Shown: positions 2,219-32,708 of the stretch, one piece after another
Layout: the number at the start of each line of letters is the position of its first letter
How positions within the stretch are numbered: the stretch's first letter is position 1
NCBI GenBank assembly: GCA_041661305.1
Contig: JBAZUR010000002.1
Location: 10,621-74,620 of the forward strand
Origin: Minisyncoccota bacterium
GTDB taxonomy: Bacteria > Patescibacteriota > Minisyncoccia > Phycocordibacterales > VMEP01
DNA length: 64,000 bases
Direction: 5' to 3'
Made by a program: the position numbers and the translations under genes
Notes under the pieces: model-generated
What the model saw: the letters and a program-made list of their open reading frames with translations, nothing else
Database searches by the model: none
What the model was told of the DNA's origin: nothing

Positions 2219-2226
2219 GTGTTTAT

Positions 2227-3141: not shown

Positions 3142-3142
3142 A

Positions 3143-4547: not shown

Positions 4548-4568
4548 CTGTTTGTATAAATTGGCTTA

Positions 4569-6389: not shown

Positions 6390-6394
6390 GGTAT

Positions 6395-7057
6395 TTATTG
6401 ATTGAGCTTGATAGCTTTTTCTGTCTCTCCTGGATTAAAAATTTTATAAAAAACCTCGATAACCTCTTCGGTTCCAAGCTGGACAGCTCTAACTCCAAAA
6501 CGAGATAGCCCCTGAGCAACCACTGAGACACGCTGGTCAAGCTGTGAACGACTTTCTTCAAAAAGTTCTGTTTCAGCGATACGGGACTCCGCGGTTGGTT
6601 CTTTATTTCCCGTCATTCCTGGAATCGGAGGAAGTGAAAAACCACTACTACCCTTCCCTCCAATAGATGGGGCGCTATAAGGAACCACTATAAAAAAGTT
6701 TTTAGTCATAATGTTTCTTGTTTCAGCAAGGTTTTTTATAAAATCAATATATTCTCGAGTCTGTATTTTAAGAAGATCTTCTAATTGTTCTTTCATTCTG
6801 TCTTCAAGCATTGTTATGTATGGCTTTATGTCTAGCTTGCGAGATTGAATGAATATTTGAATTGAGAAATCCAATGAGTTTAAAAAACCTTGGAATTGTA
6901 AAATAGTAGCAGTCTGCTCGTCTTCTGATTTTAAAGCGAGATTTAAAGAAGAAGTCATGATTAGCGCCCTCAAAGAGCCGTCTTTTAAAACAACAACGCC
7001 ATCGCGTACTTCTTTAATAGGAACAAAATCTTGAGCTGCTTTAGATTGAATAGCCAT
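6395..7057 (-). CDS. virB4: VirB4 N-terminal domain encoded as a separate ORF (split VirB4)
   Basis: The stretch DFVPIKEVRDGVVVLKDGSLRALIM...EDEQTATILQFQGFLNSL matches the conserved VirB4/TraC N-terminus. It stops 5 nt before the ATPase ORF starts, and the two ORFs are in different frames. Confidence 0.55.
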   Translation of the reverse strand: MAIQSKAAQDFVPIKEVRDGVVVLKDGSLRALIMTSSLNLALKSEDEQTATILQFQGFLNSLDFSIQIFIQSRKLDIKPYITMLEDRMKEQLEDLLKIQTREYIDFIKNLAETRNIMTKNFFIVVPYSAPSIGGKGSSGFSLPPIPGMTGNKEPTAESRIAETELFEESRSQLDQRVSVVAQGLSRFGVRAVQLGTEEVIEVFYKIFNPGETEKAIKLNQ

Positions 7058-7155
7058 TGGTTATTTGTGGTTAGTATAGCAAATAGACACTAAAATGTAT
7101 GTTCACAAGGCTCTTTACTTCTTTTTTTCACGAGAAAAAACTCCTTTTTGTGAAA

Positions 7156-7578
7156 TCATTCTTCTTTGCTCGTGGTTAAAACATCAAGACCCCAAGAGAG
7201 ATCTTTTAGTTTACTATCAGAGAGGCGCGGAACCAAAGAATTGTCAGTGTCACCCTTCTTTGCTTTTTTTGTTATCTCCATTGGCCGATTTTCTTTTTTC
7301 CAAATATATAGTTTTTCTCCGAGGTAGTAGCGAAAAGCTGCCTCAACGCTGTAAATGAACGGTTTGTCATTTATTTTATAAAATGCAAAAGCAACTGCGA
7401 GGGCTACTATAGGAATCACAAAAAATAGAGTAATTACTAAAGGAAGAAAGCTGTCTAGTATTTTATACACAACAAAAGCCATTCCCGCTCCACCAGCTAG
7501 GTAAATAAATTGTTTAAAAGTAAATGGACCAAAAATCTTATCCTCTACTTCAATAAATTGCGGAACATGAAACTGCAT
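7156..7578 (-). CDS. VirB3-like / PrgI-family small T4SS membrane protein
   Basis: 140 aa. The N-terminus ...EDKIFGPFTFKQFIYLAGGAGMAF is followed by two TM helices, which is the PrgI/TcpE-like pattern. It sits immediately upstream of virB4. Confidence 0.5.
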   Translation of the reverse strand: MQFHVPQFIEVEDKIFGPFTFKQFIYLAGGAGMAFVVYKILDSFLPLVITLFFVIPIVALAVAFAFYKINDKPFIYSVEAAFRYYLGEKLYIWKKENRPMEITKKAKKGDTDNSLVPRLSDSKLKDLSWGLDVLTTSKEE

Positions 7579-7626
7579 TTAATTAGTATAGCGTACTATT
7601 AGATGTTTTAAAGTTGTTTAGGTTTT

Positions 7627-7718
7627 TATTTTTCTCTTTAAAAACACGTATAAAAATCTGCTGATTTTTTACTATACTCACGCCGTCGCGTTGCGTAATG
7701 TTTTTAAGGAGAAAAACT
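7627..7718 (-). promoter_or_regulatory. Copy A of a conserved ~90-nt element (IR-bracketed, promoter-like or structured 5' leader), upstream of the VirB3-like gene
   Basis: Shares CATTACG-17nt-GAGTATAGTAAA...TCAGCAGA...TTATACG with copies B and C. The flanking 18-20 bp inverted repeat and two internal hairpins co-vary between copies. Confidence 0.5.
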
Positions 7719-7791
7719 AGAGCTGAAGAAAAAGAAAGCAATACGAAGCCAAACTTCATAACAACGATTATCAGAATCATTGTTTCTGGAA

Positions 7792-8526
7792 TTAGATTTG
7801 TTCTCGATATGGATCCAGTTGGTACTTTGTCTCTTTTTTAGGAAGAGCGAAAGAGTCTGTTAGTTTTTGTTCAACTATATCAATTGGCGTAGAAGCACTT
7901 TCCTTTGCAGTAGAATTTTTTTCCTCGAGAACAGGTAGAACTTTTTGTGAAGAAATTTGGGGAATAGTTTTACCTGAAGAAAGTTCTCTTTCCGGTGTGA
8001 TTAATGGATTTTCAACGTCATTTAGTACATTTTCTCTTATAAGACTTTCGTTTTCTTCGGTTTCCATGTGCTTGTCTTCACTTACAATTTCAACACCACT
8101 TTCTTTAAATATGGTTTTATCAACAGGGTTTAGTGCGGTTTGCTCAAGTACATTATTTTGTGGAACATCTTCTCTGTATGCATCATGTTTTACTTCAACT
8201 AGCTCGGTTTCGCCATGTACCTTTTTTAACGATTCACGAATTGAACCAAAAATTTGCTCATTTATATCGTGGACAATTAAGCCGGCGATATCGTGAGTCA
8301 CACCAAGCTTTGACTCCACTACCCCCAAAAAATCTTTTGGGTTTGTTATGCCAAACATAACCAAGTTTGTTTCATCAACCAAGATTGTTAACTTATCAAT
8401 ATGGAGAGAGTATTTTGATCCAATTTCTCTAATTTTTTTACCAGTATCAAAACCAAAAAGAACATCTTTCACATCGTCTGGGAGATGCTCGAGCATTTGT
8501 TCAAGTTGTTGGTTTGTGTAGTTCAT
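7792..8526 (-). CDS. Acidic soluble hypothetical protein of the T4SS-like cluster
   Basis: 244 aa ORF with no TM segment and no recognisable motif. Confidence 0.3.
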   Translation of the reverse strand: MNYTNQQLEQMLEHLPDDVKDVLFGFDTGKKIREIGSKYSLHIDKLTILVDETNLVMFGITNPKDFLGVVESKLGVTHDIAGLIVHDINEQIFGSIRESLKKVHGETELVEVKHDAYREDVPQNNVLEQTALNPVDKTIFKESGVEIVSEDKHMETEENESLIRENVLNDVENPLITPERELSSGKTIPQISSQKVLPVLEEKNSTAKESASTPIDIVEQKLTDSFALPKKETKYQLDPYREQI

Positions 8527-8541
8527 CTTAAAAGTAATTTT

Positions 8542-10962
8542 TTACTTACCCTCTGTTTTTTTATTATCTTCTCTTGCTTTCATCCTTTCAAGACTTTCTA
8601 CAAATCTTTGGAGATTTCTTGCGTTATTTTTTGCTGTTTCTCTTTCAAATAGTAGTTTTGCGCGATCATTCTTATCTCCACGGTCGCCGAGTTCGTCGAG
8701 TTTCATTTGTATATTTATTGACTCTTTTGTAAATGAATCAATGGCTTCTTTCACAGATTGGTTGCTCCCCATCAAACTTTTTATCGTTCCTTCAAGTTTA
8801 GATATTTCTTGGTCAGATTTATATTTTGAGCCGATTTCTTTCTCTGCTTTTTTGGTTGCCCCGGCATTACCAAATTTTATTGCCTGTGGAATAATCTCCC
8901 CACCTTCAATATAGTTTTTATTTTTTAGTTGTTCAAAATATGATTTTTGGCGTTCTTGTGTTACCACCCTATTCTTTGCCTCTTCCGACGATTTAATTTC
9001 ACCCTCAATAATTGAAGACTTGTCGGTTTGCTTAAATTTCTCCAGCCTTAGAGCAAGTTGCTCCTTATCGTTTTTGCCGGCTTTTTCTGCGTCAGTTAAT
9101 TTAACATTATCGAGAATCTTTTTATCTGCAGCTTTTTTAGCCACCGCCTTTTCTTCCTCAGTTAACTTAACTGTTTTGGCTTCTAGTAGCTTTGCGATAT
9201 CAGCACGTTCTTTACCGCGTTCTTTTTCGGCACGGTCAAGGTCTCCGCGGAAACCATCCGTAAGATCTTTTGGTTTTTGTCCTAGGTCAACCTTGGCGCC
9301 AGTTGCCCCAGCAAGTTTAGAACCCAATCCTCCAATAAGTGGTGTTTCACCGGCGGCGCGAACATCAAAACTAGACTTAGCTACTCCTACGGTACTTTGT
9401 AGAGCTAGGCGAGCAAATCTATTATTTGAAGCCGCAGACTTAGCCCATTCTTGGTTGGCGACCCAAGAGGCCCCTGCTCCAACTGTTCGCCTAGCTATCA
9501 AACCGCCAGCTCCGCCAGCAAGTGCTCCTGCCCCGACAGACAGCATCCCAGAAATTTTTGATCCCGCTGATCCGCTTAGCTCTCGTGTGGTTTTAACTGC
9601 TGCGAGCAAAAGTCCTATCGCAATCAAAAAACTAAAGATTACACCAACGGTATTTACGTCTGGGGAAGTAAGCGCACTCGCCATGTTTGAACCAGATACA
9701 TTTTCTGTATATGTCGTAACAGTAGAACTTACACCTCCGCTTGCGGTTAACGCAGCGGCTAGATTTGTATTTTCTGTGTAGGTTGCAACGGTAGATTTCA
9801 TGCTTCCCGTGGTAGCTACAGAGGAAGCGCTATTTAATCCGTTATTTCCACCACCAAGAATTATTAGAATCATCCACATAAACATAAGGAAAACTGGAGC
9901 CACAAGAACTTGCTCCCAGAGTTGATCCCACCACATCTTGGAGTACTTGGCTGTTTTTGGGATAAGACCAGCTACGTAGGCAAATGGTGAAAGAGGAAGA
10001 AGAAGGATGAGGATTATTGCGCGCGACAAAAAGATAAACGCAACTGAAAGAAAAGAAAAAGCAGTAATAAGAATAAAAATCACACCCATTAACGAGATAG
10101 TTAATATTTGGAAAAAATCAACAGAGTTGGAGGCAAAAACCGATTGTATTTTTGTTAGTTGGAAAAACTTATCAGATATTCCCCCAGCGGAAAAGTTTCC
10201 AGTTTGAGAGGGGTCTATAATTCCTGAATAAAATTGAAAAGCTACAATGTTTGAGGTATCAATAATGACTTTAGTAAAAAAGAGGCTGAAGTTTATTAAA
10301 AGAGCGGCGATTATAATGCTTGGAATTAATTTTTTACCATCACCTATTTGAAGAATGTTTTGTATTGAAATCCAAAGGAGAGCAAAAATAAAAATAATAT
10401 TCGACATATCGCGAATAGTTCCCCAAGCAAGATTAATCCCAGGAGTTTTCTGTATAAATTCAGCCATGTTTAGGTTGAATTTAATTGATTGATTAAGTAA
10501 TACGCTGGCAAGGTCAAGAAACCAACTACTGAGCCATAGGGCGCTGTTTCCAAACCATACAGTTGTACATCTCATAGCGTTCCCTGTAGCTAAAGCGCTC
10601 CAAGTACCACAATCAAGTTTTACGTTTTCATTAGCAGTTCCGTCAAAAGCCGAGGCGGGTAAAGCTTTTGAAGTTTCTACTTGAATACAATTTAAGTATG
10701 CACCTGAATTCCCGTCTTTAAGATAAGCACAAGCTTGTTCTGGGTTTGCCGAAGAGCTTAGTGCGTCTGTTTGATTATCTCTGTTTTGAATATCTTCCTG
10801 GAGAATACAAGGTCCCCCATTTGGGTCTTCTACATAAGGAGCTTCACAGCTTTGCGCTTCCGCAACATTATTTCCAAGCAATGGTGGTAAAACAAAAAAC
10901 AAAAAAGCAAAAAATAATATTGCTGAGGAGTAGAATATTTTTTTTGAAAAAAAAGATTTCAT
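8542..10962 (-). CDS. VirB6/TrbL-like polytopic membrane protein with a long charged C-terminal tail (TcpH-like architecture)
   Basis: Signal peptide and a Cys-containing exo-domain, then at least 6 TM helices and a Gly-rich region. The C-terminal tail of ~300 aa is Lys/Glu-rich and coiled-coil. At 806 aa it matches the size of Gram-positive VirB6 analogues. Confidence 0.45.
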   Translation of the reverse strand: MKSFFSKKIFYSSAILFFAFLFFVLPPLLGNNVAEAQSCEAPYVEDPNGGPCILQEDIQNRDNQTDALSSSANPEQACAYLKDGNSGAYLNCIQVETSKALPASAFDGTANENVKLDCGTWSALATGNAMRCTTVWFGNSALWLSSWFLDLASVLLNQSIKFNLNMAEFIQKTPGINLAWGTIRDMSNIIFIFALLWISIQNILQIGDGKKLIPSIIIAALLINFSLFFTKVIIDTSNIVAFQFYSGIIDPSQTGNFSAGGISDKFFQLTKIQSVFASNSVDFFQILTISLMGVIFILITAFSFLSVAFIFLSRAIILILLLPLSPFAYVAGLIPKTAKYSKMWWDQLWEQVLVAPVFLMFMWMILIILGGGNNGLNSASSVATTGSMKSTVATYTENTNLAAALTASGGVSSTVTTYTENVSGSNMASALTSPDVNTVGVIFSFLIAIGLLLAAVKTTRELSGSAGSKISGMLSVGAGALAGGAGGLIARRTVGAGASWVANQEWAKSAASNNRFARLALQSTVGVAKSSFDVRAAGETPLIGGLGSKLAGATGAKVDLGQKPKDLTDGFRGDLDRAEKERGKERADIAKLLEAKTVKLTEEEKAVAKKAADKKILDNVKLTDAEKAGKNDKEQLALRLEKFKQTDKSSIIEGEIKSSEEAKNRVVTQERQKSYFEQLKNKNYIEGGEIIPQAIKFGNAGATKKAEKEIGSKYKSDQEISKLEGTIKSLMGSNQSVKEAIDSFTKESINIQMKLDELGDRGDKNDRAKLLFERETAKNNARNLQRFVESLERMKAREDNKKTEGK

Positions 10963-10965
10963 TTT

Positions 10966-13206
10966 TTAATAGTATGTGTTTTGGTTTCTTCCTTCTCTCT
11001 CTAATCTTTCTTTTTCTAAAATTGCCTGGTGCTCTGTCTGACAATTACTAAAAGCACTCGAGGCGGTATCTCTAATTGCTCTTATTTCAGAAAACTGCGA
11101 TGCCGCGGTTTCGGCCATATCAGGAGTTGGAACTCCATCTGAGCCGGAAATTGCCACGAGTGAATATGAAGCTGTCTGGAAATCAGTTCTTCCAGAAGTG
11201 ATAGCTTCCTTTAGTGCTGCGAAAGGAATTATTTTTAAAGAGATGGCACCAATCTCTCTTTCTAGTTTGCTTATTAAATCATTGTAGTATGTTTGTTGAG
11301 CAAAAAGTGAAGGTGAACTCAATTGACTATCCAAAGTGCTTGGGCAATAAGTTGCTGGGCTAAAGGATATTAAGGCGCTAGTAGTTGAAGCAGCTTCATG
11401 CACAACATTTAGTGTTTCATTACGTATACCAAGGTATCCCGCAAAAGCATTAGTTGTGTTATCTATACTAGCGACAATGTCGTTGATTGAATTAATTTCT
11501 TGGGTTCGACTCGCTTGGTTATTGGCAAGATTATCGTCAGTGTAGGAAAAGAAAGAACTTTCGGCTAAAGACTGTGCTAACGCGCGGTCTTGTGGAGAAA
11601 CATCTTCGTTTGAGTTTGCGTCTATGTTTGAAACGTTTCTCGATGGAGCGGTTGCTGCGGCGCGAAGCCTCTCCTCTATTGTTGAGGCTGGTGTTGTTAT
11701 TTTGGTCTTACGACAAGCACCAGGGACGACATCAGCACCTGTATCCAAACACTCCTTTATTGGGGGGACTCCGTCTTTTGCCTCTATCTTTGCGGCTTCC
11801 TCGGCTTCTGAGAGAGAAGAACCCAAATCTTCGCTTACTCGTAGGTAGTTTGCTGCAACGTTATTTTGAGAAGCCAAAACAAAACATTTAATAGAAGAAC
11901 AAACCGAGGTGTCACCATTTCGGTATCTTGTGGCATTTGTTGCGCCAATAGCTTTTGCCAGCGGATCTTCGTATTTCGCTATTCTGCCTGCAGCTGTTTC
12001 TGATTGTTGTGAAGCGATAACTGCTTTTATGTTTTCTTCTCTATAAGGAGAATTAGTTTTAGATAAATCAGAGACAAAAATCCTTGTTTGGTTTTGTGCT
12101 TGTTTTGCAAGGTAGTCATTAAAGTTTGTTAGATACAAAGGGTTGCCATTATTCCCAGTGTTTAACCACTTCATTTCATTTTCTTGCATTTTGGCGATCG
12201 TAATACGTGAGCTTGTGTAAGCTATTCTGTCTAAACAAGTCTGTTTTGTTTTAAGAGTAGATGTATCTTGTTGCAAAGTGTTTATTTGTTTAACGATTGT
12301 TTGTGGGTCTGTTGGCACTGTTCCACCCCCGCCGAGCAAAGAAAGAACACTCCCTACTCCAGGAAGAGCAGACCCAGCTCCACCGAACACGCTCCCCAGC
12401 TCTCCCGCAGTGTATCCTGCAGACATTCCACCCAAAGTATTTCCAAGGCTAACAAGAGAGCCAGAGCCAATTTCTGCTCCAAGATTAACAAGCATGCTTC
12501 CAGTATTATTTACTACCCCAGATAGTAGGTCGCTAGATAAAACACTAGTTACTATTTTGTCAGCACCACCGACAACATTTTGAATTGCTCCGTTAATACC
12601 ACTATTAACACCTCCAATTTGACCGTTTATATTATTCAGTGCTTCGTTAATAACACCGTTTGCTTTATTTTCTAGTGCGGTACCAACTTGGCCAGCTATT
12701 TTTCCTGCCGTGTTTCCAATGACACCACCGCCCAAAGCTTCATTAACAGACCCAGAAGCTTTTGCTCCAAGGCCGTTTATCCCTGCACTACTTAAAAGTT
12801 GCTGTCCAAGAGAGGAAAGAGTACTACTTACAGCTCCTCCGACAGCGCTACACCCTGAATCGGCAAGGTTTTTGGCAAGAGCTTCATTTGCTGTGTTTAA
12901 GGAAGCCGTTTTTATTCCCGTGGATAGCGTAACGCAACTGTTTGATTCATCGTAAATACCAGATGGACACGATTGAGCCGAAGAGGCCTCTGTTGAAGGG
13001 ACATAAGCTCCGGTTGCAGGGTTGTAGTATGAATCTGTGTAATCCGAAGTTCGAACATTTTCGCCTGTTGCTGGATTATAATATTCGTTTGTTTGCGCTC
13101 TAGTTATGTTTGTAGTTGAAAAGAAAGAAGAAACAACAAACAAATAAATAAGAAATATTGAAATTGTTTTTTTAACCATATTCCTTTTAGCAGAAAATAG
13201 AACCAT
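10966..13206 (-). CDS. Large secreted/surface protein with YYNPATG repeats and a long Gly/Ser/Ala/Asn-rich low-complexity region
   Basis: N-terminal TM/signal segment. The motif Y(Y)NPATG(E/A)(N/Y)V occurs three times. About 250 aa are of GxxG/SxxG type. The C-terminal domain is globular. Confidence 0.35.
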   Translation of the reverse strand: MVLFSAKRNMVKKTISIFLIYLFVVSSFFSTTNITRAQTNEYYNPATGENVRTSDYTDSYYNPATGAYVPSTEASSAQSCPSGIYDESNSCVTLSTGIKTASLNTANEALAKNLADSGCSAVGGAVSSTLSSLGQQLLSSAGINGLGAKASGSVNEALGGGVIGNTAGKIAGQVGTALENKANGVINEALNNINGQIGGVNSGINGAIQNVVGGADKIVTSVLSSDLLSGVVNNTGSMLVNLGAEIGSGSLVSLGNTLGGMSAGYTAGELGSVFGGAGSALPGVGSVLSLLGGGGTVPTDPQTIVKQINTLQQDTSTLKTKQTCLDRIAYTSSRITIAKMQENEMKWLNTGNNGNPLYLTNFNDYLAKQAQNQTRIFVSDLSKTNSPYREENIKAVIASQQSETAAGRIAKYEDPLAKAIGATNATRYRNGDTSVCSSIKCFVLASQNNVAANYLRVSEDLGSSLSEAEEAAKIEAKDGVPPIKECLDTGADVVPGACRKTKITTPASTIEERLRAAATAPSRNVSNIDANSNEDVSPQDRALAQSLAESSFFSYTDDNLANNQASRTQEINSINDIVASIDNTTNAFAGYLGIRNETLNVVHEAASTTSALISFSPATYCPSTLDSQLSSPSLFAQQTYYNDLISKLEREIGAISLKIIPFAALKEAITSGRTDFQTASYSLVAISGSDGVPTPDMAETAASQFSEIRAIRDTASSAFSNCQTEHQAILEKERLEREGRNQNTYY

Positions 13207-14230: not shown

Positions 14231-14316
14231 AATACTTTTGAAAAACACGTATAATTTTTTGCTAAAAATTTACTATGCTCGGCTCGTCAGCCTGCGCAAT
14301 GTTTTTCGAAAGTATT
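14231..14316 (-). promoter_or_regulatory. Copy B of the conserved ~90-nt IR-bracketed element, upstream of the gene at 13212-14156
   Basis: Core is CATTGCG-17nt-GAGCATAGTAAATTTTTAGCAAAAAATTATACGTG. It is flanked by AATACTTTTGAAAAACAC and GTTTTTCGAAAGTATT, a 16/17 inverted repeat. Confidence 0.5.
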
Positions 14317-25586: not shown

Positions 25587-26513
25587 ATGACTCAAGATTT
25601 AAAGAGCTTAAAACAACAATTTCTCGAATATATAGAAATAGAACGCGGGAGAAGCTTGAAAACAGTACGTAATTACGATGCATATTTAGAGCGTTTTCTT
25701 GTTCAAACAAACGCAAAACACCCCAAAGATATAACCGACGACTCTGTTCGTGAATTTCGTCTATGGCTTAATAGACAAGAAGGTCGGCGCGAGCGCGGAA
25801 TGAGTGCTGGAACTTTAAAAAAGAAGACACAGAACTATTATTTGATTGCGTTACGAATTTTTCTTAAGTATTTAATGAAAAGAGGAATCGAGGCGATGCC
25901 ACCAGACCGTATTGAATTGGCAAAGGTATCAGAACGCTCGCTTGACCTTATTTCTCTTGATGAATTAGAGAGATTACTTAAAGCCCCTAATGGCGATGAT
26001 TTAAAAAGTTTGCGTGATAAAGCAATTTTAGAACTACTTTTTTCTACAGGACTTCGTGTTTCTGAGCTTTGCTCTCTTCCCCGTGATATTGATTTACGTA
26101 AAGATGAATTTTCTGTTAGGGGGAAAGGTGAAAAAGTCCGCGTTGTTTTTCTTTCGGATTCGGCAAAGGAGGCGATTAAAAAATACTTAGCTAAGCGTCC
26201 GGATATGGAAGACGTCCTTTTTGTTGGCACTGGAAGTATTGGCAAGAAAAAAGGAGAAATAACACATCTCACAACTCGTTCCGTGGAAAGAATTGTCGCG
26301 CAATATGCAATTAAGGCGGGTATCTCAAAAAAAGTAACCCCTCACGTTATTCGCCACTCATTCGCTACAGATTTACTGGGTAACGGGGCAGATATTCGCT
26401 CTGTTCAAATGATGCTCGGCCATGCGAGTATTTCCACTACTCAAATCTATACCCACGTGACAGATAAAGCTCTTAGGGAGATACATAAAAAATTCCACAG
26501 CGGTGGAAAGTAA
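25587..26513 (+). CDS. xerC: Tyrosine recombinase of the XerC/XerD family
   Basis: 308 aa with a core-binding domain and a C-terminal catalytic region (RHSFATDLLGNGADIRSVQMMLGHASISTTQIYTHV) that carries the R..H..Y residues. Confidence 0.85.
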   Translation: MTQDLKSLKQQFLEYIEIERGRSLKTVRNYDAYLERFLVQTNAKHPKDITDDSVREFRLWLNRQEGRRERGMSAGTLKKKTQNYYLIALRIFLKYLMKRGIEAMPPDRIELAKVSERSLDLISLDELERLLKAPNGDDLKSLRDKAILELLFSTGLRVSELCSLPRDIDLRKDEFSVRGKGEKVRVVFLSDSAKEAIKKYLAKRPDMEDVLFVGTGSIGKKKGEITHLTTRSVERIVAQYAIKAGISKKVTPHVIRHSFATDLLGNGADIRSVQMMLGHASISTTQIYTHVTDKALREIHKKFHSGGK

Positions 26514-27680: not shown

Positions 27681-29150
27681 CTATTTTACCCAGTGTTTTT
27701 TTCTTATCTCAGATACTTCTTTTGATTCCTCCTCCTCTTTTTTAGCCTTCCCCTCCTCGCCAAGTTTTTTTAGCTCGTCGATAGATAGTTTTATTAATAC
27801 AAGTGAACGTTTTTCTAGATACTCAGTGGTATTTCTGTCTGGCTCATCAAGTACTTCCTCAAGAAGTGCGTGTAAAACATAGCCAATCTTTGGTCCAGGA
27901 GTTTCATGTGTAACTTCCATAATACGTTTTCCGTCAATCTTTAGCATCGCTACCGATATCGGTGCACGCATCGCTTCTTCAATCATAGACTCATATTTTC
28001 TAAGCCGATACGGGGTCTCTTTTGGTCTGCCCATGCCGATACGGTCGCATGCTCTAACTTTCATTAAATCCCAAACATTTTCTGGTCCAACATTTTTTAC
28101 AATCCTTCTTACAGCGGAAAGGGTTATTTTTTCTACATCTGAGAAAAATAAATGATATCTCACTAGTTTAGAAACAACCTCTACTATATCTTTTGGAAAA
28201 CGCATCCTCTCCAGTATTTTTTTTGTTACACGTGAACCAACAACATCGTGCCCATAGAATGTATAATCTTTCTTTTCATCTGACCAACGCCTAGTTTCGG
28301 GCTTAGAAACATCATGAAATAAGGCTGCAAGTCTCACGTGTAACGGCCAATCTCTATCTGCCGAGTGCTGTAAAGCTCTTAGGTTGTGCTCCCAAACATC
28401 GTAAATATGGTCGCCATTCTGTTTAACCTTAATGCCAGCTTCTGTTTCAGGTGAAACATATTTGAGCACGCCAAGACGATTTGCTAAGACGATTCCTATC
28501 ATTGGGTTCGGTGACATTACTAGTTTTATAAATTCATCACGAATCCTTTCCAGCGCTATGTTTTTTAGGTTATTCACATTGTTTTCCAACGCTTTTTCTG
28601 TCTCGCTGTTAATCATGAAACCTAATTCTGCGGCCAAACGAACTGCTCTCATTACACGAAGTGCATCTTCGGCAAATCTTTCTTCTGGATTGCCAACTGC
28701 TCGGATAATCTTGTCCTTTATATCCTTTTGTCCGTTATACGGATCAACAATTTGTCCTTTAGTAATATCATACGCAATCGCGTTGATTGTGAAGTCACGC
28801 CTCCTTAGGTCGTCTTCTAGATTTTTACTAAAAACAACAGAGTCTGGTCTGCGGTAATCACTATACTTCCCCTCTATTCTGTAGGGAGTTATTTCTACAA
28901 TTTTTAACGTCTCGTCTGTTTCACTTTCATCTACAACACCAACTGTTCCGTACTCATTTTCGTAAAATGTTTTTGGAAAAATTTTTATAATATCCTCCGG
29001 TCTTGCATTTGTCGTGAAGTCCCAATCTTTTGGTTTTTTACCCGCTAAAACATCTCGAACACACCCCCCAACTAAATATGCTTCAAAACCGGCTTTTTCT
29101 AGAGATTCGCTTATGGCGCTTATGTTTTTGGGGATATTTTCAGGCTTCAT
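27681..29150 (-). CDS. cca: CCA-adding tRNA nucleotidyltransferase with HD domain
   Basis: GGCVRDVLAG and DWDFTT identify the polymerase-beta head. An HD domain follows. Total length 489 aa. Confidence 0.9.
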   Translation of the reverse strand: MKPENIPKNISAISESLEKAGFEAYLVGGCVRDVLAGKKPKDWDFTTNARPEDIIKIFPKTFYENEYGTVGVVDESETDETLKIVEITPYRIEGKYSDYRRPDSVVFSKNLEDDLRRRDFTINAIAYDITKGQIVDPYNGQKDIKDKIIRAVGNPEERFAEDALRVMRAVRLAAELGFMINSETEKALENNVNNLKNIALERIRDEFIKLVMSPNPMIGIVLANRLGVLKYVSPETEAGIKVKQNGDHIYDVWEHNLRALQHSADRDWPLHVRLAALFHDVSKPETRRWSDEKKDYTFYGHDVVGSRVTKKILERMRFPKDIVEVVSKLVRYHLFFSDVEKITLSAVRRIVKNVGPENVWDLMKVRACDRIGMGRPKETPYRLRKYESMIEEAMRAPISVAMLKIDGKRIMEVTHETPGPKIGYVLHALLEEVLDEPDRNTTEYLEKRSLVLIKLSIDELKKLGEEGKAKKEEEESKEVSEIRKKHWVK

Positions 29151-29223
29151 TATCTAAAAATATTACTCCAGGTTTTGATATTTTCCTAATTTTCCTTATG
29201 ATGTAAGGGTTCTCACAGTTTTA

Positions 29224-29295
29224 GCCCCCGTAGTGAAATGGATATCACGACAGTCTTCGAAACTGTTATTCCAGGTTCGAATCCTGGCGAGGGCA
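29224..29295 (+). tRNA. tRNA-Arg (anticodon TCG)
   Basis: Cloverleaf: acceptor GCCCCCG/CGAGGGC with one C-A mismatch at 5-68, D arm GTGA..TCAC, anticodon arm ACAGT-CTTCGAA-ACTGT, T arm CCAGG-TTCGAAT-CCTGG. No CCA is encoded. A promoter-like TTGATA-16-TATGAT lies at 29174-29201. Confidence 0.6.
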
Positions 29296-29482
29296 CACGA
29301 AGTGTGCCTGAAGCAGTGAGACGCCTGCGCGTCTCACGTCAGGATTCGAAAGCCGGAATATGTTTTTGTAATCAAAAACATTGAGGCGGGGTTGCAGGTT
29401 CTTAGTACGTGAAGAATGTACACATTTGAACGTGCTTAGAAACCTGTGACCGAATCCCAGTAGAAAAATATCCGTGACCTAA
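29296..29482 (+). repeat. tRNA-trailer module, copy 1 (after tRNA-Arg)
   Basis: Two hairpins, then CAGGATTCGAA (antisense of the tRNA-Arg T-loop/stem), then AAGCCGGA...GAGGCGGGGT, a variable hairpin, ...TGTGACCGAATCC and ATATCCGTGACC. It shares its core with copies 2 and 3. Confidence 0.45.
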
Positions 29483-29551
29483 TCTTTTATTGACGTAACC
29501 TCTATATTATTTGAACTTATTTAAAACTCTGTTAAAATACACCGATAAATT

Positions 29552-29622
29552 GCGGGTATGGTTTAGTGGTAGAACACGTCCTTGCCAAGGATGAGACGGG
29601 GTTTCGATTACCCCTACCCGCA
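29552..29622 (+). tRNA. tRNA-Gly (anticodon GCC)
   Basis: Acceptor GCGGGTA/TACCCGC, anticodon loop TTGCCAA, T arm GGGGT-TTCGATT-ACCCC. No CCA is encoded. A promoter-like TTGAAC-16-TAAAAT lies at 29508-29535. Confidence 0.85.
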
Positions 29623-29672
29623 CAAAGCGTTAAGAAAACATGCTAGGAATAGCATGTTTTCTTAACGCTTTG
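29623..29672. repeat. Perfect 23-bp inverted repeat (hairpin) immediately 3' of tRNA-Gly(GCC)
   Basis: CAAAGCGTTAAGAAAACATGCTA-GGAA-TAGCATGTTTTCTTAACGCTTTG. No T-run follows. Confidence 0.7.
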
Positions 29673-29989
29673 TGGGTCGGAGTATTATTGTTTACCAATA
29701 CAATAACTGTAATAATTTTTCTGTATTAACGGCTTACGGACAGTTTTTTGCAAGAAAGATAGAGACTTGTAAACAGTGCTACTTTAAAAAATAAGGCTAA
29801 AATAGGTCAAATCTGGGGATAAGTCAGTGGACAATGTTAATAAGAGACATAAAAACTGTCCAAGAAAATGGCCTTTATTTGTCTAAAAATGGCTTTAAAT
29901 AAGGATAATTTGTCTTTATTGGGACTTTCCTTTCTAAAAGTTTCACGTGAAACAAACATATCCAAAGTTGTGGTGTATAATTATTTTTT

Positions 29990-30400
29990 ATGAGCTCAAG
30001 TGTTGAGAGAAATCAAGCGAAACAGATGGTTGGAAGGGTCGGTGAAGATTTGGCTTGTAGATTTCTGGAAAAGAAAGGTTTTAGTATTGTAGATAGAAAT
30101 TACCGAAAGTTTACTGGGGAAATAGATATAATTGCGAAAAAGGACAAAACTTTGTACTTTATTGAAGTTAAGACTGTTTCCCGTGAAAACTTTGGCTTGG
30201 AAGACGTGTGGATTGGGCACCGCGCGGAGGACAATCTCCACCCTCAAAAATTAAAACGTCTTAGTAGAGCCATTAACTCATATCTTCAAGAGAAGAGGGT
30301 AGACGTAGATTGTAATTGGCAGTGCGACGCCGTTATTGTCAATTTGTTTACAAAGGAGAAAAAAGCAAAAATTAAGTATTTAGAAAATATTTTTGCGTAA
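29990..30400 (+). CDS. yraN: YraN/UPF0102-family endonuclease
   Basis: 136 aa; GEDLACRFLEKKGFSIVDRNYR...GEIDIIAKKD...YFIEVKT matches the family. An extended -10 box (TGGTGTATAAT) ends ~8 nt before the ATG. Confidence 0.7.
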   Translation: MSSSVERNQAKQMVGRVGEDLACRFLEKKGFSIVDRNYRKFTGEIDIIAKKDKTLYFIEVKTVSRENFGLEDVWIGHRAEDNLHPQKLKRLSRAINSYLQEKRVDVDCNWQCDAVIVNLFTKEKKAKIKYLENIFA

Positions 30401-30504
30401 TTTTTTAATTTTTATGATAGGATTGGTGGGTTGTCGTGTTTTATAAGCGTTTGTTTTAATGGCAGGTGGAAGGGAATACGTCTGCGTGGGGTCAAAAAAT
30501 GTTT

Positions 30505-30541
30505 CGGGGTGTAGTATAGAGGTAGTACGTCTGCTTTGGGG
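30505..30541 (+). repeat. Orphan duplicate of the 5' half of tRNA-Pro
   Basis: A 37-nt copy of the first ~36 nt of tRNA-Pro (30579-30614), differing only at the last base. A more decayed copy lies at ~30462-30490, where ...GAATACGTCTGCGTGGGG is recognisable. Confidence 0.6.
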
Positions 30542-30578
30542 TTGTGAAGATTTTCCGTTTGGTTTTTGGTTATATCGC

Positions 30579-30649
30579 CGGGGTGTAGTATAGAGGTAGT
30601 ACGTCTGCTTTGGGAGCAGATAGCCCGAGTTCGATTCTCGGCACCCCGA
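30579..30649 (+). tRNA. tRNA-Pro (anticodon TGG)
   Basis: Acceptor CGGGGTG/CACCCCG, anticodon arm TCTGC-TTTGGGA-GCAGA, T arm CCGAG-TTCGATT-CTCGG, discriminator A. It is flanked by a 16/17 inverted repeat (GGTTGTGAAGATTTTCC at 30537-30553 and TTGAAAAATCTTCACAACC at 30673-30691). Confidence 0.85.
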
Positions 30650-30930
30650 CGATGTAACTAAACGGTTTGTGTTGAAAAATCTTCACAACCAGAAGTCTGG
30701 GAGACTTCTGTGGAAATTTCCATAAGAAATTTAGATAGCCCGAGTTCGATTCTCCCATCCCGCACAGATTTTAGCGAAGCGAAAAGCTGGGCGGGATGAG
30801 CAAGCAAACTGCTTTGCTTGCGTGGAGAATCGAAAGCCGGAGCATGTCGCCCTGCGACGGCGAGGCGGGGTCGAGAGTACTTATGAGCGAAGCGAATTAG
30901 TAACTCGTGACCGATTCTCGGCACCCCGAC
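30650..30930 (+). repeat. tRNA-trailer module, copy 2 (after tRNA-Pro), including a chimeric tRNA 3' fragment
   Basis: At 30734-30766 the T arm is Pro-like (GATAGCCCGAGTTCGATT) and the acceptor 3' strand is Gly(TCC)-like (CTCCCATCCCGCA). Then GCGGGATG (antisense), a hairpin, GGAGAATCGAAAGCCGGAGC...GAGGCGGGGT, a hairpin, CGTGACCGATTCTCGGCACCCCGAC. The last 19 nt repeat the tRNA-Pro 3' end. Confidence 0.45.
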
Positions 30931-30949
30931 AATGTAGCTAAGTGGGTTT

Positions 30950-32101
30950 TTATCCCTCGATTTCTTTTGTTAATAAATCTATAAGCGGTTTAGATAGGAC
31001 TTCTTTGAAGTTTTTTTGAGCGATATCTAAATCTTGAGAGATAAATTCATTTAATGTTTGTCCGGTTTCAGTTTTTATTTCTCGGTCAATATGTCCAGGT
31101 GTTATCGCGAAAAGAACCCGTTCTCCAGTTGAGGTGTTATTTGTGCTTGTAGTTATTATTCCCTCAAGCTTGCCGGTTGATTGGTTGATAACAGCTCCAC
31201 CCGAAGATCCTCTCTGCGAAAGAATATTCCCTTCAACGGAAATAACATCTAGAAGGGCTTTATCATAGAAATTATAAAGCTCCTTAATAACTCCTGTGCT
31301 TGAGGTTAAGGAAAGGCTTGTTTGTATTGTGGCGCCACCCAAGAAACCAGCTGGATAGGCGATAATAAGCATTGGAAGAGAGCGAAGAACCAGTTCTGGA
31401 TTAATATTAGCTTCAATATAAGGGAACGATTGAGGTAATGGTTGTCCGTCTGGTTTACCAACCGCTCGTAGTAAGGCAAAATCGTTTTCACCGGTGCCTG
31501 TTGGATCTTCTTGTTTGATTGTTTGTTTATTTTCTTCTATCCATTTTTTTGAAATATAAAGTGGTTCAATTAAAAAAGTAGGGGAAGCGGGGGAGCCTTG
31601 TCTGGCAACACATGTTATGTAGTTTTTTACACCATAGTCTCGAAGGAGGAAATATTGTCCAATATGAGCATTTGTGAGGATAACCCCCTTGTTGTTTATA
31701 AAGACACCACTTCCAGAAAGAGGCTTGAAATCACCGCCATTTTGAGTGGTACAGAGTATGTTTACAATCGCCGGGCGAGCTTTTTCGTTAAGCTGTTCAA
31801 GCGGGAGGAGTTGTATGGTGATAGTTTTTGGCGTTGTTGAGGCTGGGATATTTGTTTGGACGAGCTTTTGTTTAGTTGTTGTTGATGTTTTTTGAGTGAC
31901 TAAGTTTTTAGATAATAGTTCTGAGGTGGTAGTTCCAGTCTTGGTTACTGGGGTTGTTGAAGATATTACGCTTTCAGTTTTTAGAACGTTAATCGGTTCT
32001 GTTTCTGTGGGTGTGGATGTTTTAGCAGGGAGTATAAAAAGAAGAGCAATAGTTGCGCCCAAAAGAATCTTTTTTATAGAAATTCCAAAAATTTTAAACA
32101 T
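30950..32101 (-). CDS. Secreted trypsin-like serine protease (S1/HtrA-like, no obvious PDZ domain)
   Basis: N-terminal TM helix and a Thr-rich linker. Catalytic motifs TNAHI, D and GSSGGAV are present. Confidence 0.7.
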   Translation of the reverse strand: MFKIFGISIKKILLGATIALLFILPAKTSTPTETEPINVLKTESVISSTTPVTKTGTTTSELLSKNLVTQKTSTTTKQKLVQTNIPASTTPKTITIQLLPLEQLNEKARPAIVNILCTTQNGGDFKPLSGSGVFINNKGVILTNAHIGQYFLLRDYGVKNYITCVARQGSPASPTFLIEPLYISKKWIEENKQTIKQEDPTGTGENDFALLRAVGKPDGQPLPQSFPYIEANINPELVLRSLPMLIIAYPAGFLGGATIQTSLSLTSSTGVIKELYNFYDKALLDVISVEGNILSQRGSSGGAVINQSTGKLEGIITTSTNNTSTGERVLFAITPGHIDREIKTETGQTLNEFISQDLDIAQKNFKEVLSKPLIDLLTKEIEG

Positions 32102-32169
32102 GAGGACTATTATATCTGGAAAGTTTACTTCACAGTACTTTATCTGATAATATGGCGAATACAGTATTT

Positions 32170-32240
32170 GCGGGATTAGTTAAATGGTATAACTCCAGTT
32201 TTCCAAACTGGTGTCGGGAGTTCGATTCTCCCATCCCGCA
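32170..32240 (+). tRNA. tRNA-Gly (anticodon TCC)
   Basis: Acceptor GCGGGAT/ATCCCGC, D arm GTTA..TAAC, anticodon arm CCAGT-TTTCCAA-ACTGG, T arm GGGAG-TTCGATT-CTCCC, discriminator A. Confidence 0.85.
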
Positions 32241-32385
32241 CTGAATTTTAACAAAACTAGCTAAGGCTAGTTTTGTTGCGGGATGGGAGAATCGAAAGCC
32301 GGAGCGCGACGGCGTGAGGCGGGGTAGCGGAATTTTCCAGCAGGAAAATATCCGTGACCGATTCCCATCCCGCACCAGATATACA
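32241..32385 (+). repeat. tRNA-trailer module, copy 3 (after tRNA-Gly(TCC))
   Basis: A 12-bp hairpin (AACAAAACTAGC-TAAG-GCTAGTTTTGTT), then GCGGGATGGGAGAATCGAA (exact antisense of the tRNA 3' end), AGCCGGAGC...GAGGCGGGGT, a hairpin, CCGTGACC and GATTCCCATCCCGCACCA (sense 3' end plus CCA). A terminator lies at 32390-32422. Confidence 0.5.
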
Positions 32386-32389
32386 AAAT

Positions 32390-32422
32390 AAAAAACCGCA
32401 TTTATGCGGCTTTTTATTTTTT
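32390..32422. terminator. Bidirectional terminator after the tRNA-Gly(TCC) module, also serving hup
   Basis: AAAAAACCGCATTTATGCGGCTTTTTATTTTTT. Confidence 0.6.
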
Positions 32423-32435
32423 AGAGAGTAGTGAA

Positions 32436-32708
32436 TTACTTCACTGCGTCTTTCAAACCCTTGCCTGCGCGAAACTTAGGAACGTTCATTGCTGGGACGT
32501 TAACTGGTTCGCCTGTGCGAGGATTGCGGGCGGTTCTTGCTGCGCGTTTCTTTACAACGAATGTTCCAAAACCTGCAACAGAGACCTCATCACCTTTCTT
32601 TAGTGATTTTACGATCGAGTCGAACACTGTTTCAACTGCTTGTTCTGCGGATACTTTTGTTCCGCCTAACACTGCATGTACTGAGTCGACAATTCCTGCT
32701 TTATTCAT
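32436..32708 (-). CDS. hup: DNA-binding protein HU
   Basis: 90 aa; MNKAGIVDSV...GFGTFVVKKRAARTARNPRTGEPVNVPA is the HU/IHF fold signature. Confidence 0.9.
   Translation of the reverse strand: MNKAGIVDSVHAVLGGTKVSAEQAVETVFDSIVKSLKKGDEVSVAGFGTFVVKKRAARTARNPRTGEPVNVPAMNVPKFRAGKGLKDAVK

Follow-up and report, generated by a model that had tools for sequence, protein, structure and literature searches.

Tyrosine-integrase islands and prophages, which enter by the Campbell route at T-loop or 3'-end sublocations, occupy the 3' half of tRNA genes. Because such an element brings a substitute 3' end of its own, the tRNA remains whole, and the 3' part of the tRNA becomes directly repeated on both sides; insertions can be stacked at one tRNA, and the locus varies between strains. 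The modules described here share these features, but they are only 100-280 bp long, carry neither an integrase nor any other gene, possess an inverted att copy and a covarying three-way-junction core, and have repeats that can take in the trailer and the terminator. A second likeness is found in integron cassettes, in which the fold of one strand rather than its sequence defines the attC site, with conserved bulged bases. As with the modules, the cassettes are mostly short units, few of them with cargo, their sites occur without a linked integrase, and new units of an array appear to be placed nearest a fixed entry point. Unlike integrons, the modules have no IntI/attI/Pc platform, no recombinase beside the arrays, and none of the R''/L''-L'/R' boxes or GTTRRRY core sites of attC; instead of a single imperfect hairpin they form a three-way junction plus a target-derived hairpin, and they enter at a tRNA gene.

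CTX phage and other folded-ssDNA XerCD elements carry two inverted att arms which, with a loop, form a hairpin mimicking the duplex target, and the inverted arm adjoins one junction after integration; the modules show the same arm layout, and their hairpin may mimic the target likewise. Their recombinase (XerCD) is encoded by the host and not by the element, and a comparable enzyme acting in trans may serve the modules. These, however, target a tRNA gene and not dif, are not phages, are about 50 times smaller, and their folded strand could be RNA. REP/REPIN sequences with RAYT, Rickettsia palindromic elements and MITEs are gene-less, multicopy, rich in strong hairpins, often nested or in tandem, and mobilised in trans or by an obscure route, as the modules would be. 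In contrast to MITE and REP sequences, the modules have arms copied from the target at each locus instead of conserved terminal repeats, the length of the target duplication is not fixed, and the target, tRNA position 56/57, is strict; no RAYT (IS200-like) gene was found by Pfam scans that covered 38 of the open reading frames of the window (the whole stretch of DNA analysed, 64 kb). Finally, tRNA-like RNAs such as YrlA, viral tRNA-like structures and the tmRNA domain share an acceptor/T helix and an NCCA tail with some copies, for example module 3. This combination is not family-wide in the modules, which have the core in place of a T-loop and match no Rfam tRNA-like family. No description matching the modules was found in the literature.

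Behind tRNA-Arg, tRNA-Pro and tRNA-Gly, the window contains a core of the form GAAAGCCGGA..GAGGCGGGGT..GTGACC (Table 1). The pattern GAAAGCCGGAN..GAGGCGGGGT has exactly three matches in the 64-kb window (29348, 30832 and 32294) and none in 100 shuffles of it, so no copy is expected by chance; GTGACC closes each copy (ends 29451, 30912 and 32359). The three tRNA-linked copies reported in the first-pass annotation are therefore borne out, and the antisense and sense copies of tRNA ends described there are real, as repeats I3, I13, I16, D2 and D4. With Rfam 15, only the four tRNAs of the whole window reach the gathering score. Over 29100-32500, with E-values up to 10, only spurious low scores were obtained (e.g., 27.8 bits against a cut-off of 97), and no module matched hammerhead, twister, hatchet, pistol, HDV-like, tRNA-like or IscB/TnpB-type guide-scaffold families.

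Table 1. Features of the three tRNA-linked modules and neighbouring tRNA genes (positions in the window)
Feature	Position	Strand	Basis or remark
tRNA-Arg(TCG)	29224..29296	+	ARAGORN, Rfam; module 1 copies its 3' part from position 57 on
Module 1 left part	29297..29347	+	sequence, inverted repeat I16
Module 1 antisense piece of acceptor end and trailer, GTGTGCCT	29302-29309		within left part
Module 1 P0 hairpin, CUGC loop	29316-29337		within left part
Module 1 P1 5' arm, CAGGATTC	29340-29347		within left part
Module 1 core: three-way junction, 9-bp P2, long P3	29348..29451	+	43-51 bits
Module 1 right part	29452..29484	+	direct repeats D10, D11; compare L079
tRNA-Gly(GCC)	29552-29623		ARAGORN, Rfam
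tRNA-Pro(TGG), intact copy	30579..30650	+	ARAGORN, Rfam
Chimeric junction: tRNA-Pro T-arm 5' part joined to tRNA-Gly(TCC) acceptor 3' strand	30733..30765	+	D1; also in L122
Module 2 left part, with spacer hairpin	30766..30831	+	inverted repeat I8
Module 2 Gly-type antisense acceptor arm, GCGGGATG	30791-30798		within left part
Module 2 P0 hairpin, CUGC loop	30800-30821		within left part
Module 2 P1 5' arm, GTGGAGAATC	30822-30831		within left part
Module 2 core	30832..30912	+	61.2 bits
Module 2 distal sense copy: tRNA-Pro positions 57-73 and ~18 nt of trailer	30913..30948	+	direct repeat with 30633-30668
tRNA-Gly(TCC)	32170..32241	+	ARAGORN, Rfam
Module 3 left part	32242..32293	+	inverted repeats I2, I3
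Module 3 spacer hairpin	32250-32277		within left part
Module 3 antisense arm, GCGGGATGGGAGAATC	32278-32293		within left part
Module 3 core, 66-nt short form	32294..32359	+	91.8 bits
Module 3 distal sense copy: tRNA-Gly positions 57-73, 2-nt deletion, then CCA	32360..32377	+	D4, I13
Intrinsic terminator-like hairpin and U run after module 3, common to convergent HU gene	32396..32423	+	I6

The core is a three-way junction on the tRNA-sense strand, with strong covariation. Tested twice, the fold gave 90.6% and 92.2% paired cells, against 35-45% with the partner slid; double-sided changes were present in 381 and 869 cells, compared with 113 and 251 after shuffling; P2a covaries in the matches reached by the covariance model only. 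One G.U pair is kept in 120 of 121 sequences, the unpaired junction nucleotides (GAAA, GGA/GA and GG) are near-invariant, and the loop motifs are strongly strand-asymmetric, in a sample whose pattern-based collection fixes 24 core positions and biases the view of conservation accordingly. The string (A)TATCCGTGACC, earlier listed as a separate motif, is the 3' strand of helix P3. The core is under strong purifying selection, with compensatory change.

The modules belong to a large family, apparently undescribed so far, that is present in hundreds of genomes of ultra-small (CPR) bacteria. Each of two whole-collection scans, of genomes and of metagenomes, gave at least 120 stretches of DNA, mostly behind tRNAs, in agreement with the novel family proposed in the first-pass annotation; the matches listed belong mostly to Patescibacteria, with some Elusimicrobia. 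In about 85-90% of the matches listed, a tRNA of nearly any isotype stands 9-200 nt upstream on the same strand (100 genome-scan matches and 96 of the 122 metagenome matches listed; at least 18 isotypes), and a copy of this tRNA from position 57 onward comes after the core. An immediate copy of tRNA positions 61-73 is present in 127 of 195 modules, and the junction has a fixed target position, 56/57. Within these loci, approximately half of the tRNAs are module-free. Many copies occur per genome, in repeat-like contexts, and cores only 2-3 of 66 nt apart occupy different isotypes in different classes; the core of module 3 differs by 2 nt from one behind tRNA-Val in a Nomurabacteria genome (L070). 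Related cores are also found away from any tRNA, and a related tRNA-independent family keeps the arms and not the junction nucleotides.

The arrangement of these gene-less units, of ~100-280 bp, is A-L-A'-core-A. The proximal A would be a replacement tRNA copy, from position 57 through the trailer, that now completes the working tRNA; L is a spacer hairpin and A' the Watson-Crick inverted copy of A, standing before the conserved core, while the distal A, directly behind the core, would be a displaced older copy. In 21 cases the antisense arm is Watson-Crick complementary to A, versus five in which it copies the tRNA 5' strand, and at differences between the sense copies it agrees with the proximal one 19 times versus seven; on both counts the arm is part of the element. 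The distal copies decay. The direct repeats continue 5 to at least 59 nt into trailer and terminator, with lengths from ~6 nt to at least 59 nt across the family. P1, whose arms in the window are the inverted repeats I13 and I16, can be as short as 4 bp or longer than 25 bp and frequently continues into the trailer (the ungapped run is mostly 2-9 bp, with a maximum of 17 bp), while the antisense arm is very variable in length and often broken by the P0 hairpin.

It had been claimed that each arm is antisense to its own tRNA. This holds for module 3, in which I3 is 20 nt long and 100% complementary, but not for module 2, whose arm (GCGGGATG .. GGAGAATC, 30791-30831) matches tRNA-Gly(TCC) and pairs over only 7 bp with the Pro sense copy. 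The left part of module 2 recurs behind tRNA-Gly(TCC) in L122 and L129, and its chimeric junction resembles the attL that a Gly-type module would leave on recombining into a tRNA-Pro gene. One module has moved from tRNA-Gly to tRNA-Pro. The closing sense copy, likewise ascribed to all three, is present in module 2 (D2, 48 nt, tRNA-Pro 3' end and trailer) and module 3 (D4, tRNA-Gly 3' end), but in module 1 it amounts to GAATCC (29452-29457), and 29458-29484 is what remains of an older module, the 3' half of its P3 (CAGTAGAAAAATATCCGTGACC) with TAATC behind it.

The loci also differ between strains. Behind tRNA-Gly(TCC), strains with an identical HU protein have three different arrangements, two of them with cargo, and a syntenic genome of ~83% identity has other module subtypes and other distal remnants at the same three tRNAs; orthologous tRNAs bear different subtypes or none. 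Tandem, nested and inverted copies occur, and remnants are left. Cargo between core and distal copy was seen in L118, L122, L129 and L131; a far copy exists in at most 14 of 195 modules, some of these being other tRNA genes, tandem modules or chance matches. This turnover agrees with the earlier suggestion that the 17-19-nt duplications are att-like traces of elements targeting tRNA 3' ends, and natural transformation followed by homologous replacement could produce the strain differences as well. Neither a free or circular form nor, in close relatives, a clean empty site was found. The neighbour searches, which covered 4-8-kb flanks and one 64-kb window, revealed no linked recombinase, transposase or reverse transcriptase, the clustered neighbouring proteins being housekeeping ones. 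A phmmer search of ~235 loci (1.47 Mb) with a tyrosine recombinase query gave four matches, three syntenic Xer-like genes and a weak one; the window's own tyrosine recombinase copy is 2.7 kb from the nearest module.

The modules probably represent, with a probability of roughly 0.55, an undescribed family of small gene-less integrative modules seated in the 3' half of tRNA genes. Integrated mobile DNA is favoured over a dedicated tRNA-trailer RNA because strains differ at the same tRNA in modules, remnants and cargo, because the tRNA-Pro module has a tRNA-Gly antisense arm and a Pro/Gly junction, because direct repeats enter trailers and terminators, because the antisense arm is an inverted copy matching the proximal tRNA copy, and because 44% of modules (87 of 196) stand behind a terminator-like hairpin with a U run between tRNA and core. 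Integration would follow the Campbell route, through recombination within A that mostly starts at the T-loop 56/57 junction; a newcomer would land beside the intact tRNA and shift older copies outward, to decay there. As the modules have no linked enzyme, it would be supplied in trans. The A:A' hairpin and the core would be the functional single-stranded structure of the element, acting either as read-through RNA or as folded ssDNA that presents a duplex target copy, an option likened to integron attC sites and the attP of CTX phage. Several points count against integrative modules: no recombinase, transposase or reverse transcriptase is linked, neither a free form nor a clean empty site was found, homologous exchange could also account for the strain differences, the matching of A' to each new tRNA is not accounted for, the terminator of module 3 lies after and not before it, and a functional RNA is suggested by the strongly conserved junction nucleotides, the frequent G.U pairs and the tandem G.A motifs.

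A rather unlikely alternative is a trailer RNA beneficial to the host, which would be co-transcribed with the tRNA, fold into a tRNA top-half mimic and serve 3' processing as an RNase P/RNase Z entry site, CCA-enzyme decoy or exonuclease barrier, the sense copy existing only for pairing with the antisense arm. The modules do always stand close behind the tRNA on its strand, their fold covaries with a conserved G.U pair, no mobility gene is linked, and module 3 combines a 16-bp P1 ending in ACCA with a terminator after it. However, ACCA follows the sense copy in only this one of the window's three copies, and sister strains have AAAAA or TAAAA there, so the helix ending in ACCA that the first-pass annotation described is confined to copy 3. 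Nor is an acceptor/T minihelix a family feature: since P1 varies in length and often takes in the trailer, there is no free NCCA end, and CCA is not enriched behind distal copies (10/55, against 6/55 behind tRNA genes). Co-transcription, suggested earlier for copy 3, is not general, because the terminator-like hairpin so often separates tRNA and core. The decay of distal copies, the arm that follows the proximal copy, the module-free half of the tRNAs, the differing or missing subtypes at orthologous tRNAs and the related cores away from any tRNA all speak against a trailer function.

RNA-guided homing is less probable again. Here A' and core would form an RNA, guide plus scaffold, used by a nuclease or recombinase whose gene lies elsewhere, insertion would be aimed at the guide-matched tRNA gene, and the sense copy would be the captured target. 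A variable target-complementary arm does precede a conserved scaffold, this arm differs from tRNA to tRNA although the cores are nearly identical, and the target junction is fixed; moreover, a dedicated guide lets type V-K CRISPR-associated transposons home to tRNA genes. On the contrary, no candidate effector gene lies within ~4 kb of ~235 loci, the guide would be sequestered in P1, its length is very variable with an arm often broken by P0, and no likeness to any Rfam guide scaffold exists.

Even more doubtful is a small self-cleaving or self-ligating ribozyme, with P1 as substrate helix and a break or join at the core/position-57 junction, which would process trailers or attack pre-tRNA at the RNA level. 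The compact 66-nt junction, with its near-invariant unpaired nucleotides and G.U pair, would suit such an activity, as would the many copies in repeat-like contexts and a substrate-like strand starting exactly at the inner end of P1; but no known class matches at E-values up to 10, the tRNA-independent relatives keep arms and not junction nucleotides, and the inclusion of trailers and terminators in the direct repeats argues for DNA duplication rather than RNA joining.

Ordinary decayed attL/attR scars of conventional integrase-encoding prophages or islands targeting tRNA genes would leave tRNA 3' ends directly repeated at loci that differ between strains and hold cargo genes, but they are hardly credible and already contradicted by a conserved, covarying core, the same 66-100 nt with compensatory changes in more than 240 loci of many lineages. 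The tyrosine recombinase search revealed no integrase tied to the modules, phage, plasmid and viral collections gave chance matches only, and a conventional attP has no antisense arm.

As minor observations on the tRNA genes themselves, the fourth one of the window, tRNA-Gly(GCC), had been left undiscussed in the earlier annotation, and the acceptor stem of tRNA-Arg(TCG) contains a C.A mismatch.

The window contains four tRNA genes, all of them on the plus strand, and three of these, tRNA-Arg(TCG), tRNA-Pro(TGG) and tRNA-Gly(TCC), are followed by a small gene-less unit (modules 1, 2 and 3, respectively). The parts are arranged as A-L-A'-core-A, where A is a copy of the tRNA from position 57 through the trailer, L is a spacer hairpin and A' is an inverted copy of A; the proximal A completes the working tRNA and the distal A is the older sense copy, behind the core. 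The two-part core (GAAAGCCGGAN..GAGGCGGGGT) has three matches in the window, at 29348, 30832 and 32294, and none in 100 shuffled windows, and every one of the three cores ends in GTGACC. A promoter-like site lies immediately 5' of each window tRNA, and module 3 is the only one of the three followed by a predicted terminator. The first-pass annotation had claimed that each module carries an antisense and a sense copy of the 3' end of its own tRNA. Both kinds of copy were recovered at the three modules by a repeat finder, for instance as a 20-nt perfect repeat (I3, the antisense/sense pair of copy 3) and as a 48-nt direct repeat (D2) of the tRNA-Pro 3' end and trailer. However, copy 2 has an antisense arm derived from tRNA-Gly(TCC) instead of tRNA-Pro, the sense copy of copy 1 is present but reduced to GAATCC, and the CCA reported after the sense copy is found in copy 3 but not in copies 1 and 2.

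Coordinates of tRNA genes, recombinase gene and tRNA-independent junctions (window numbering, except for L105 and L109, which are loci from other genomes or metagenomes)
Feature	Position	Strand	Source or remark
tRNA-Arg(TCG)	29224-29296	+	ARAGORN, Rfam
tRNA-Gly(GCC)	29552-29623	+	ARAGORN, Rfam
tRNA-Pro(TGG)	30579-30650	+	ARAGORN, Rfam
tRNA-Gly(TCC)	32170-32241	+	ARAGORN, Rfam
Xer-like tyrosine recombinase	25587-26513		2.7 kb upstream of module 1
tRNA-independent three-way junction	57320-57410	+	window
tRNA-independent three-way junction	14232-14316	-	window
tRNA-independent three-way junction	7630-7712	-	window
tRNA-independent three-way junction	L105 5641-5724	-	
tRNA-independent three-way junction	L109 4077-4154	-	

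The core is a three-way junction comprising, from 5' to 3', helix P1, a GAAA linker, P2a, an internal loop, P2b, a GG linker and P3. P1 is formed by the locus-specific arms, that is, the antisense arm and the distal sense copy. P2a is GCC/GGC, with an internal loop above it in which GGA faces GA; P2b has at least 4 bp and a loop of the GACG type; and P3 (GGUCGC.../...GUGACC) contains a conserved G.U pair, a bulged A and an apex that is usually CAGCAG, and joins the returning P1 strand with zero linker. The core covaries. In 68 genome sequences 90.6% of the cells are paired, against 38-45% after a shift of the 3' partner by 1-3 columns, with two-sided changes in 381 cells compared with 113 in shuffles. 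Among 123 independent metagenome matches aligned to the model, pairing reaches 92.2% against 35-44% in the slid alignments, double changes affect 869 cells against 251 in shuffles, 26 of the 30 pairs show compensatory changes, and the conserved G.U pair is retained in 120/121 sequences. The search pattern itself fixes P2a, which covaries (GAC/GUC, GGC/GCC) among the matches recovered by the covariance model only. The inner end of P1 tracks the tRNA, being TC with G57A58 (n=58) and TT with A57A58 (n=21), or is a tandem GA/GA instead (n=31). Single-sequence folding gives z-scores of -5 to -8 relative to shuffles, and there are 131 G.U pairs against 37 A.C pairs. The loop motifs are strongly asymmetric between the strands (CAGCAG, 87 vs 3; CGACGG, 92 vs 3; GCGAAGC, 36 vs 4), which identifies the tRNA-sense strand as the folded one.

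Optional parts of the module, as is typical of a structured single strand, include a P0 hairpin with a conserved AACUGCUU apex that splits the antisense arm, a mini-hairpin GUGUACUCAC within P1, and P2 arms in duplicate. The mini-hairpin (10-14 nt) separates T-loop positions 58 and 59 in the 3' strand of P1, right after GTGACC GA, at four loci (L006, L025, L045 and L046) behind tRNA-Trp and tRNA-Glu of different genomes. A composite module with two P2-type arms and a short hairpin between them (CUCAAUUGC..GCAAUUGAG) occurs at L079 7647-7783 and L094 4074-4211; its presence at different tRNAs of two genomes marks it as a heritable subtype and not a random nested insertion. The heptamer GCGAAGC, with tandem G.A flanks, recurs in spacers and in P2/P3 arms of many loci (e.g., window 30773-30782 and 30888-30897). 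GCGAAGC is known as an unusually stable DNA mini-hairpin, and its recurrence would hint, if faintly, at a role of the fold in single-stranded DNA. A kissing contact that would pair the CUGC loop of P0 with the GCAG loop of P3 was set aside, given that the AGCA loop is mostly missing from P0-bearing modules.

The core is found beside tRNAs in other genomes on a large scale. The three-part pattern GAAAGCCGG..GAGGCGGGG..GTGACC gave at least 120 matches in a GTDB collection with one genome per species and at least 120 in JGI metagenome contigs. Among the matches listed, the genome hosts are mostly Saccharibacteria, Paceibacterota/Parcubacteria and other Patescibacteria, together with seven or eight contigs of Elusimicrobia; chance matches in GC-rich coding DNA number about five or fewer per scan. 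A same-strand tRNA lies at most 300 nt upstream in 100 of the listed genome-scan matches, and a same-strand upstream tRNA accompanies 96/122 of those listed from metagenomes, with 10 more at contig ends. The tRNA-to-core spacer has a median of about 60 nt and the host tRNAs represent 18 or more isotypes, again among the matches listed. The tRNA's own sequence from position 57 on stands directly 3' of GTGACC, and positions 61-73 are retained with at most two mismatches in 127/195 of the listed modules. The two-part pattern had a single chance match in phage sequences, within a coding region, the three-part pattern had three in viral contigs, all GC-rich, and blastn found no match to the modules in phage and plasmid collections. 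Rfam 15 holds no comparable family at the gathering score or at E-values up to 10, and a literature search that included the core sequences returned no description of the modules; a paper on introns in the tRNA genes of Patescibacteria deals with the group I type, which interrupts the anticodon loop.

The modules turn over at tRNA genes. Contigs encoding an HU protein identical to the one adjoining module 3 show three arrangements downstream of tRNA-Gly(TCC): the short module of the window (L124); a different, P0-bearing module with a P3 remnant behind it and then cargo genes over about 1.25 kb (L122 and L131); and the L122-type module with GATTCTCC behind it, then a GrpB gene and, beyond two P3 remnants, the old distal copy (L129). 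The cargo at L122 4318-5600, also present in L131, encodes a 249-aa protein without a recorded Pfam family and small ORFs, and that of L129 is a GrpB-family gene (1848-2366) between the module and the old distal copy. Several related contigs stop exactly at the module, which suggests that these units break metagenome assemblies. The left part of the window tRNA-Pro module equals that of the L122 and L129 Gly modules, down to the antisense of the Gly acceptor, GCGGGATG, and at 30733-30765, upstream of the tRNA-Pro module, a Pro T-arm is joined to a Gly acceptor 3' strand. This junction is as expected if a Gly-type element recombined into tRNA-Pro through GAGTTCGATTCTC, which both tRNAs share, and the case can be read from the sequences as a documented jump. 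In L079, whose flanking genes are about 83% identical to those of the window and keep the Arg/Gly/yraN/Pro order, the same tRNAs carry different module subtypes and distal remnants; tRNA-Gly(GCC) has a full module there vs a 25-bp palindrome alone in the window. In both, the newest-looking module adjoins the tRNA and truncated ones lie farther out. Tandem, nested or inverted copies were observed at L007, L079, L094, L101 and L118. On the reverse strand of L118 (oriented 1327-4050), tRNA-Glu is followed by a module and, directly after GATTC, by a 1.6-kb cargo gene with repeated helix-turn-helix-like segments, then by three more tRNA 3'-end copies, another cargo and another module, which has the spacer of the first; judged by its sequence, this locus is a cassette-like array.

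Direct repeats reach at least 5 nt into the trailer in 21/99 cases, and several span 42-59 nt or more and take in an intrinsic terminator in full (L035, L116); repeats that run past the tRNA in this way indicate duplication of DNA rather than capture of a mature tRNA. Cores that differ at only 2-3 of 66 nt, the median among core 66-mers being 13, occur behind different isotypes in different classes: window Gly(TCC) and Nomurabacteria Val form one near-identical pair, and Saccharibacteria Ser and Parcubacteria Trp another. Neither a free form of the modules nor, in any near-identical strain, a clean empty site was found, and homologous replacement after transformation could lie behind some of the strain differences.

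The reading we favor, with a probability of about 0.55 as a whole, is that of a gene-less integrative module, A-L-A'-core, in which cargo is rare. Such a module would recombine within A into the 3' half of a matching tRNA gene, usually from the 56/57 junction (in a minority of tRNA-Lys cases the recombination point is the discriminator or the trailer), providing the new 3' end of the tRNA and pushing the old end out beyond the core; the remnant stacks would then build up through repeated arrivals and through deletions at microhomologies. The active folded form would be RNA or single-stranded DNA with roughly equal likelihood. Integron attC sites and CTX phage attP, which are structure-specific single-strand recombination sites, offer a likeness in the conserved fold of one strand, the perfect Watson-Crick hairpin that mimics the target and the lack of a linked integrase; an RNA is an equally good fit to the conserved junction, the G.U pairs and the tandem G.A motifs. 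A more tentative proposal is that the modules are autonomous-looking, gene-less hairpin replicators, each a dumbbell-shaped single strand of DNA or RNA integrating into the matching tRNA gene via a host enzyme. The free form would measure about 150-250 nt, its stem duplicating the 3' half of the tRNA gene and the three-way junction capping one end; the arms would be re-templated on each new target and cargo genes sometimes taken along.

The antisense arm bears on what the modules are. At G.U sites of the T-stem it is the Watson-Crick complement of the 3' strand (n=21) rather than the base of the tRNA 5' strand (n=5), so that it is a true inverted copy; the same counts exclude the module as a shrunken copy of a tRNA gene. 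Where the proximal and distal copies differ, the arm agrees with the proximal one 19 times and with the distal one 7 times, in a small sample with some related loci. This agrees with an element that brings A and A' as one hairpin, and disagrees with a trailer RNA in which P1 is the main object of selection. An unlikely alternative overall is an RNA dedicated to tRNA processing or acting as a decoy, which the conserved fold would suit. Thermodynamic prediction for the full tRNA-Gly transcript prefers the 3' half of the tRNA paired with the antisense arm, making the arm a potential hazard for tRNA folding and not an obvious help. A terminator-like hairpin with a U run stands between tRNA and core in 87/196 of the listed cases and is often the middle of the A-L-A' palindrome. 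The arm is not a primer-binding site complementary to a mature tRNA with CCA, as it runs on into the genomic trailer. CCA follows the distal copies in 10/55 cases and the tRNA genes in 6/55.

An enzyme linked to the integrative module was sought among 1,410 ORFs around 115 genome loci, compared all-against-all, with Pfam scans of the top clusters. Housekeeping families only were obtained, the recurrent neighbors being cysteine desulfurase, a translational GTPase, HtrA, RbfA, MiaA, L19, RluD and YraN, the last because the tRNA-Arg/tRNA-Gly/yraN gene order is conserved. In 1.47 Mb of flanks there were four tyrosine-recombinase matches, of which three are orthologues of the window Xer-like gene and the fourth is weak. 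The linkage of this gene to modules elsewhere, like that of the CCA-adding enzyme gene (window 27681-29150, opposite strand, directly upstream of tRNA-Arg) and of a type IV secretion-like cluster (2227-13206, with pilin, TraG-like P-loop ATPase and PrgI), reflects conserved synteny only. A guide-plus-scaffold RNA, whose effector would be unlinked, seems more improbable than a processing RNA. Slightly less credit is given to a small ribozyme that would act at the 56/57 junction; compared by eye, neither the hammerhead nor other ribozyme cores fit (e.g., CUGANGA is missing). Ordinary integrase scars, at the tail of the list, would account for the duplicated tRNA ends and are contradicted by the conserved, covarying core.

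Already known are att-duplicating integration at tRNA genes and, as further building blocks, structured repeats or recombination sites defined by structure. What is new is the combination, in a gene-less unit, of a conserved three-way junction, a hairpin copied from the target and strict targeting of the tRNA 3' half, which no described family unites; the chance that the modules form a genuinely new class of structure-directed mobile element is substantial, though less than even. Among the smallest and most streamlined genomes of bacteria are some from Patescibacteria and Elusimicrobia. If the integrative reading is right, a large share of the tRNA genes of the former and of some of the latter carry tiny unrecognized structured elements with a new conserved fold, which rewrite tRNA 3' ends, make hot spots of gene gain and loss, and break metagenome assemblies. 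Were the hairpin replicators real, a tRNA-targeted, structure-directed class would be new and CPR bacteria would capture cassettes without an integron integrase. The modules offer a testable system, either for structure-directed integration without a linked recombinase or for a new functional RNA tied to tRNA genes, and the covariance model lets annotators detect a feature that is now invisible.

Several further observations concern the window tRNA genes. The acceptor stem of tRNA-Arg(TCG) has a C.A mismatch at pair 5-68, and its L079 counterpart (about 6091-6162) has one at pair 6-67; these mismatches might have been left by element-borne copies that replaced the 3' strand. No core lies behind tRNA-Gly(GCC); the perfect 25-bp palindrome there starts within the 3' end of the gene and is followed by a degenerate antisense 3'-end copy GTGGGTCGGAGTATT, the two together occupying 29621-29692. 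The orthologue upstream of yraN has a full module in L016, L042, L079, L085 and L100, and the window arrangement may represent either a module in decay or a precursor without a core. An exact copy of the tRNA-Pro 5' half, up to the anticodon, is situated at 30505-30540, 74 nt upstream of the intact gene, and is present in L079 and L122 too. A perfect 15-bp inverted repeat (30540-30554/30676-30690) flanks the intact gene, and the old 3' part, joined to the tRNA-Gly 3' end, lies further downstream. It looks as if an insert of ~190 bp carrying a fresh tRNA-Pro had split the old gene in its anticodon loop.

A second family of junctions is independent of tRNAs. These share with the tRNA modules the P2 arm, with its GGA/GA and GACG loops, and the upper part of P3, with its bulged A and AGCA loop, but differ in the junction sequences, AU-UAC...GUA-UA...UAC-GY, and their closing helices are long and locus-specific. 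The window copies lie 60-80 nt upstream of genes for rpsL, a TSP3-repeat protein and a PrgI-like protein, and a riboswitch or leader role was rejected because these downstream genes are unrelated.
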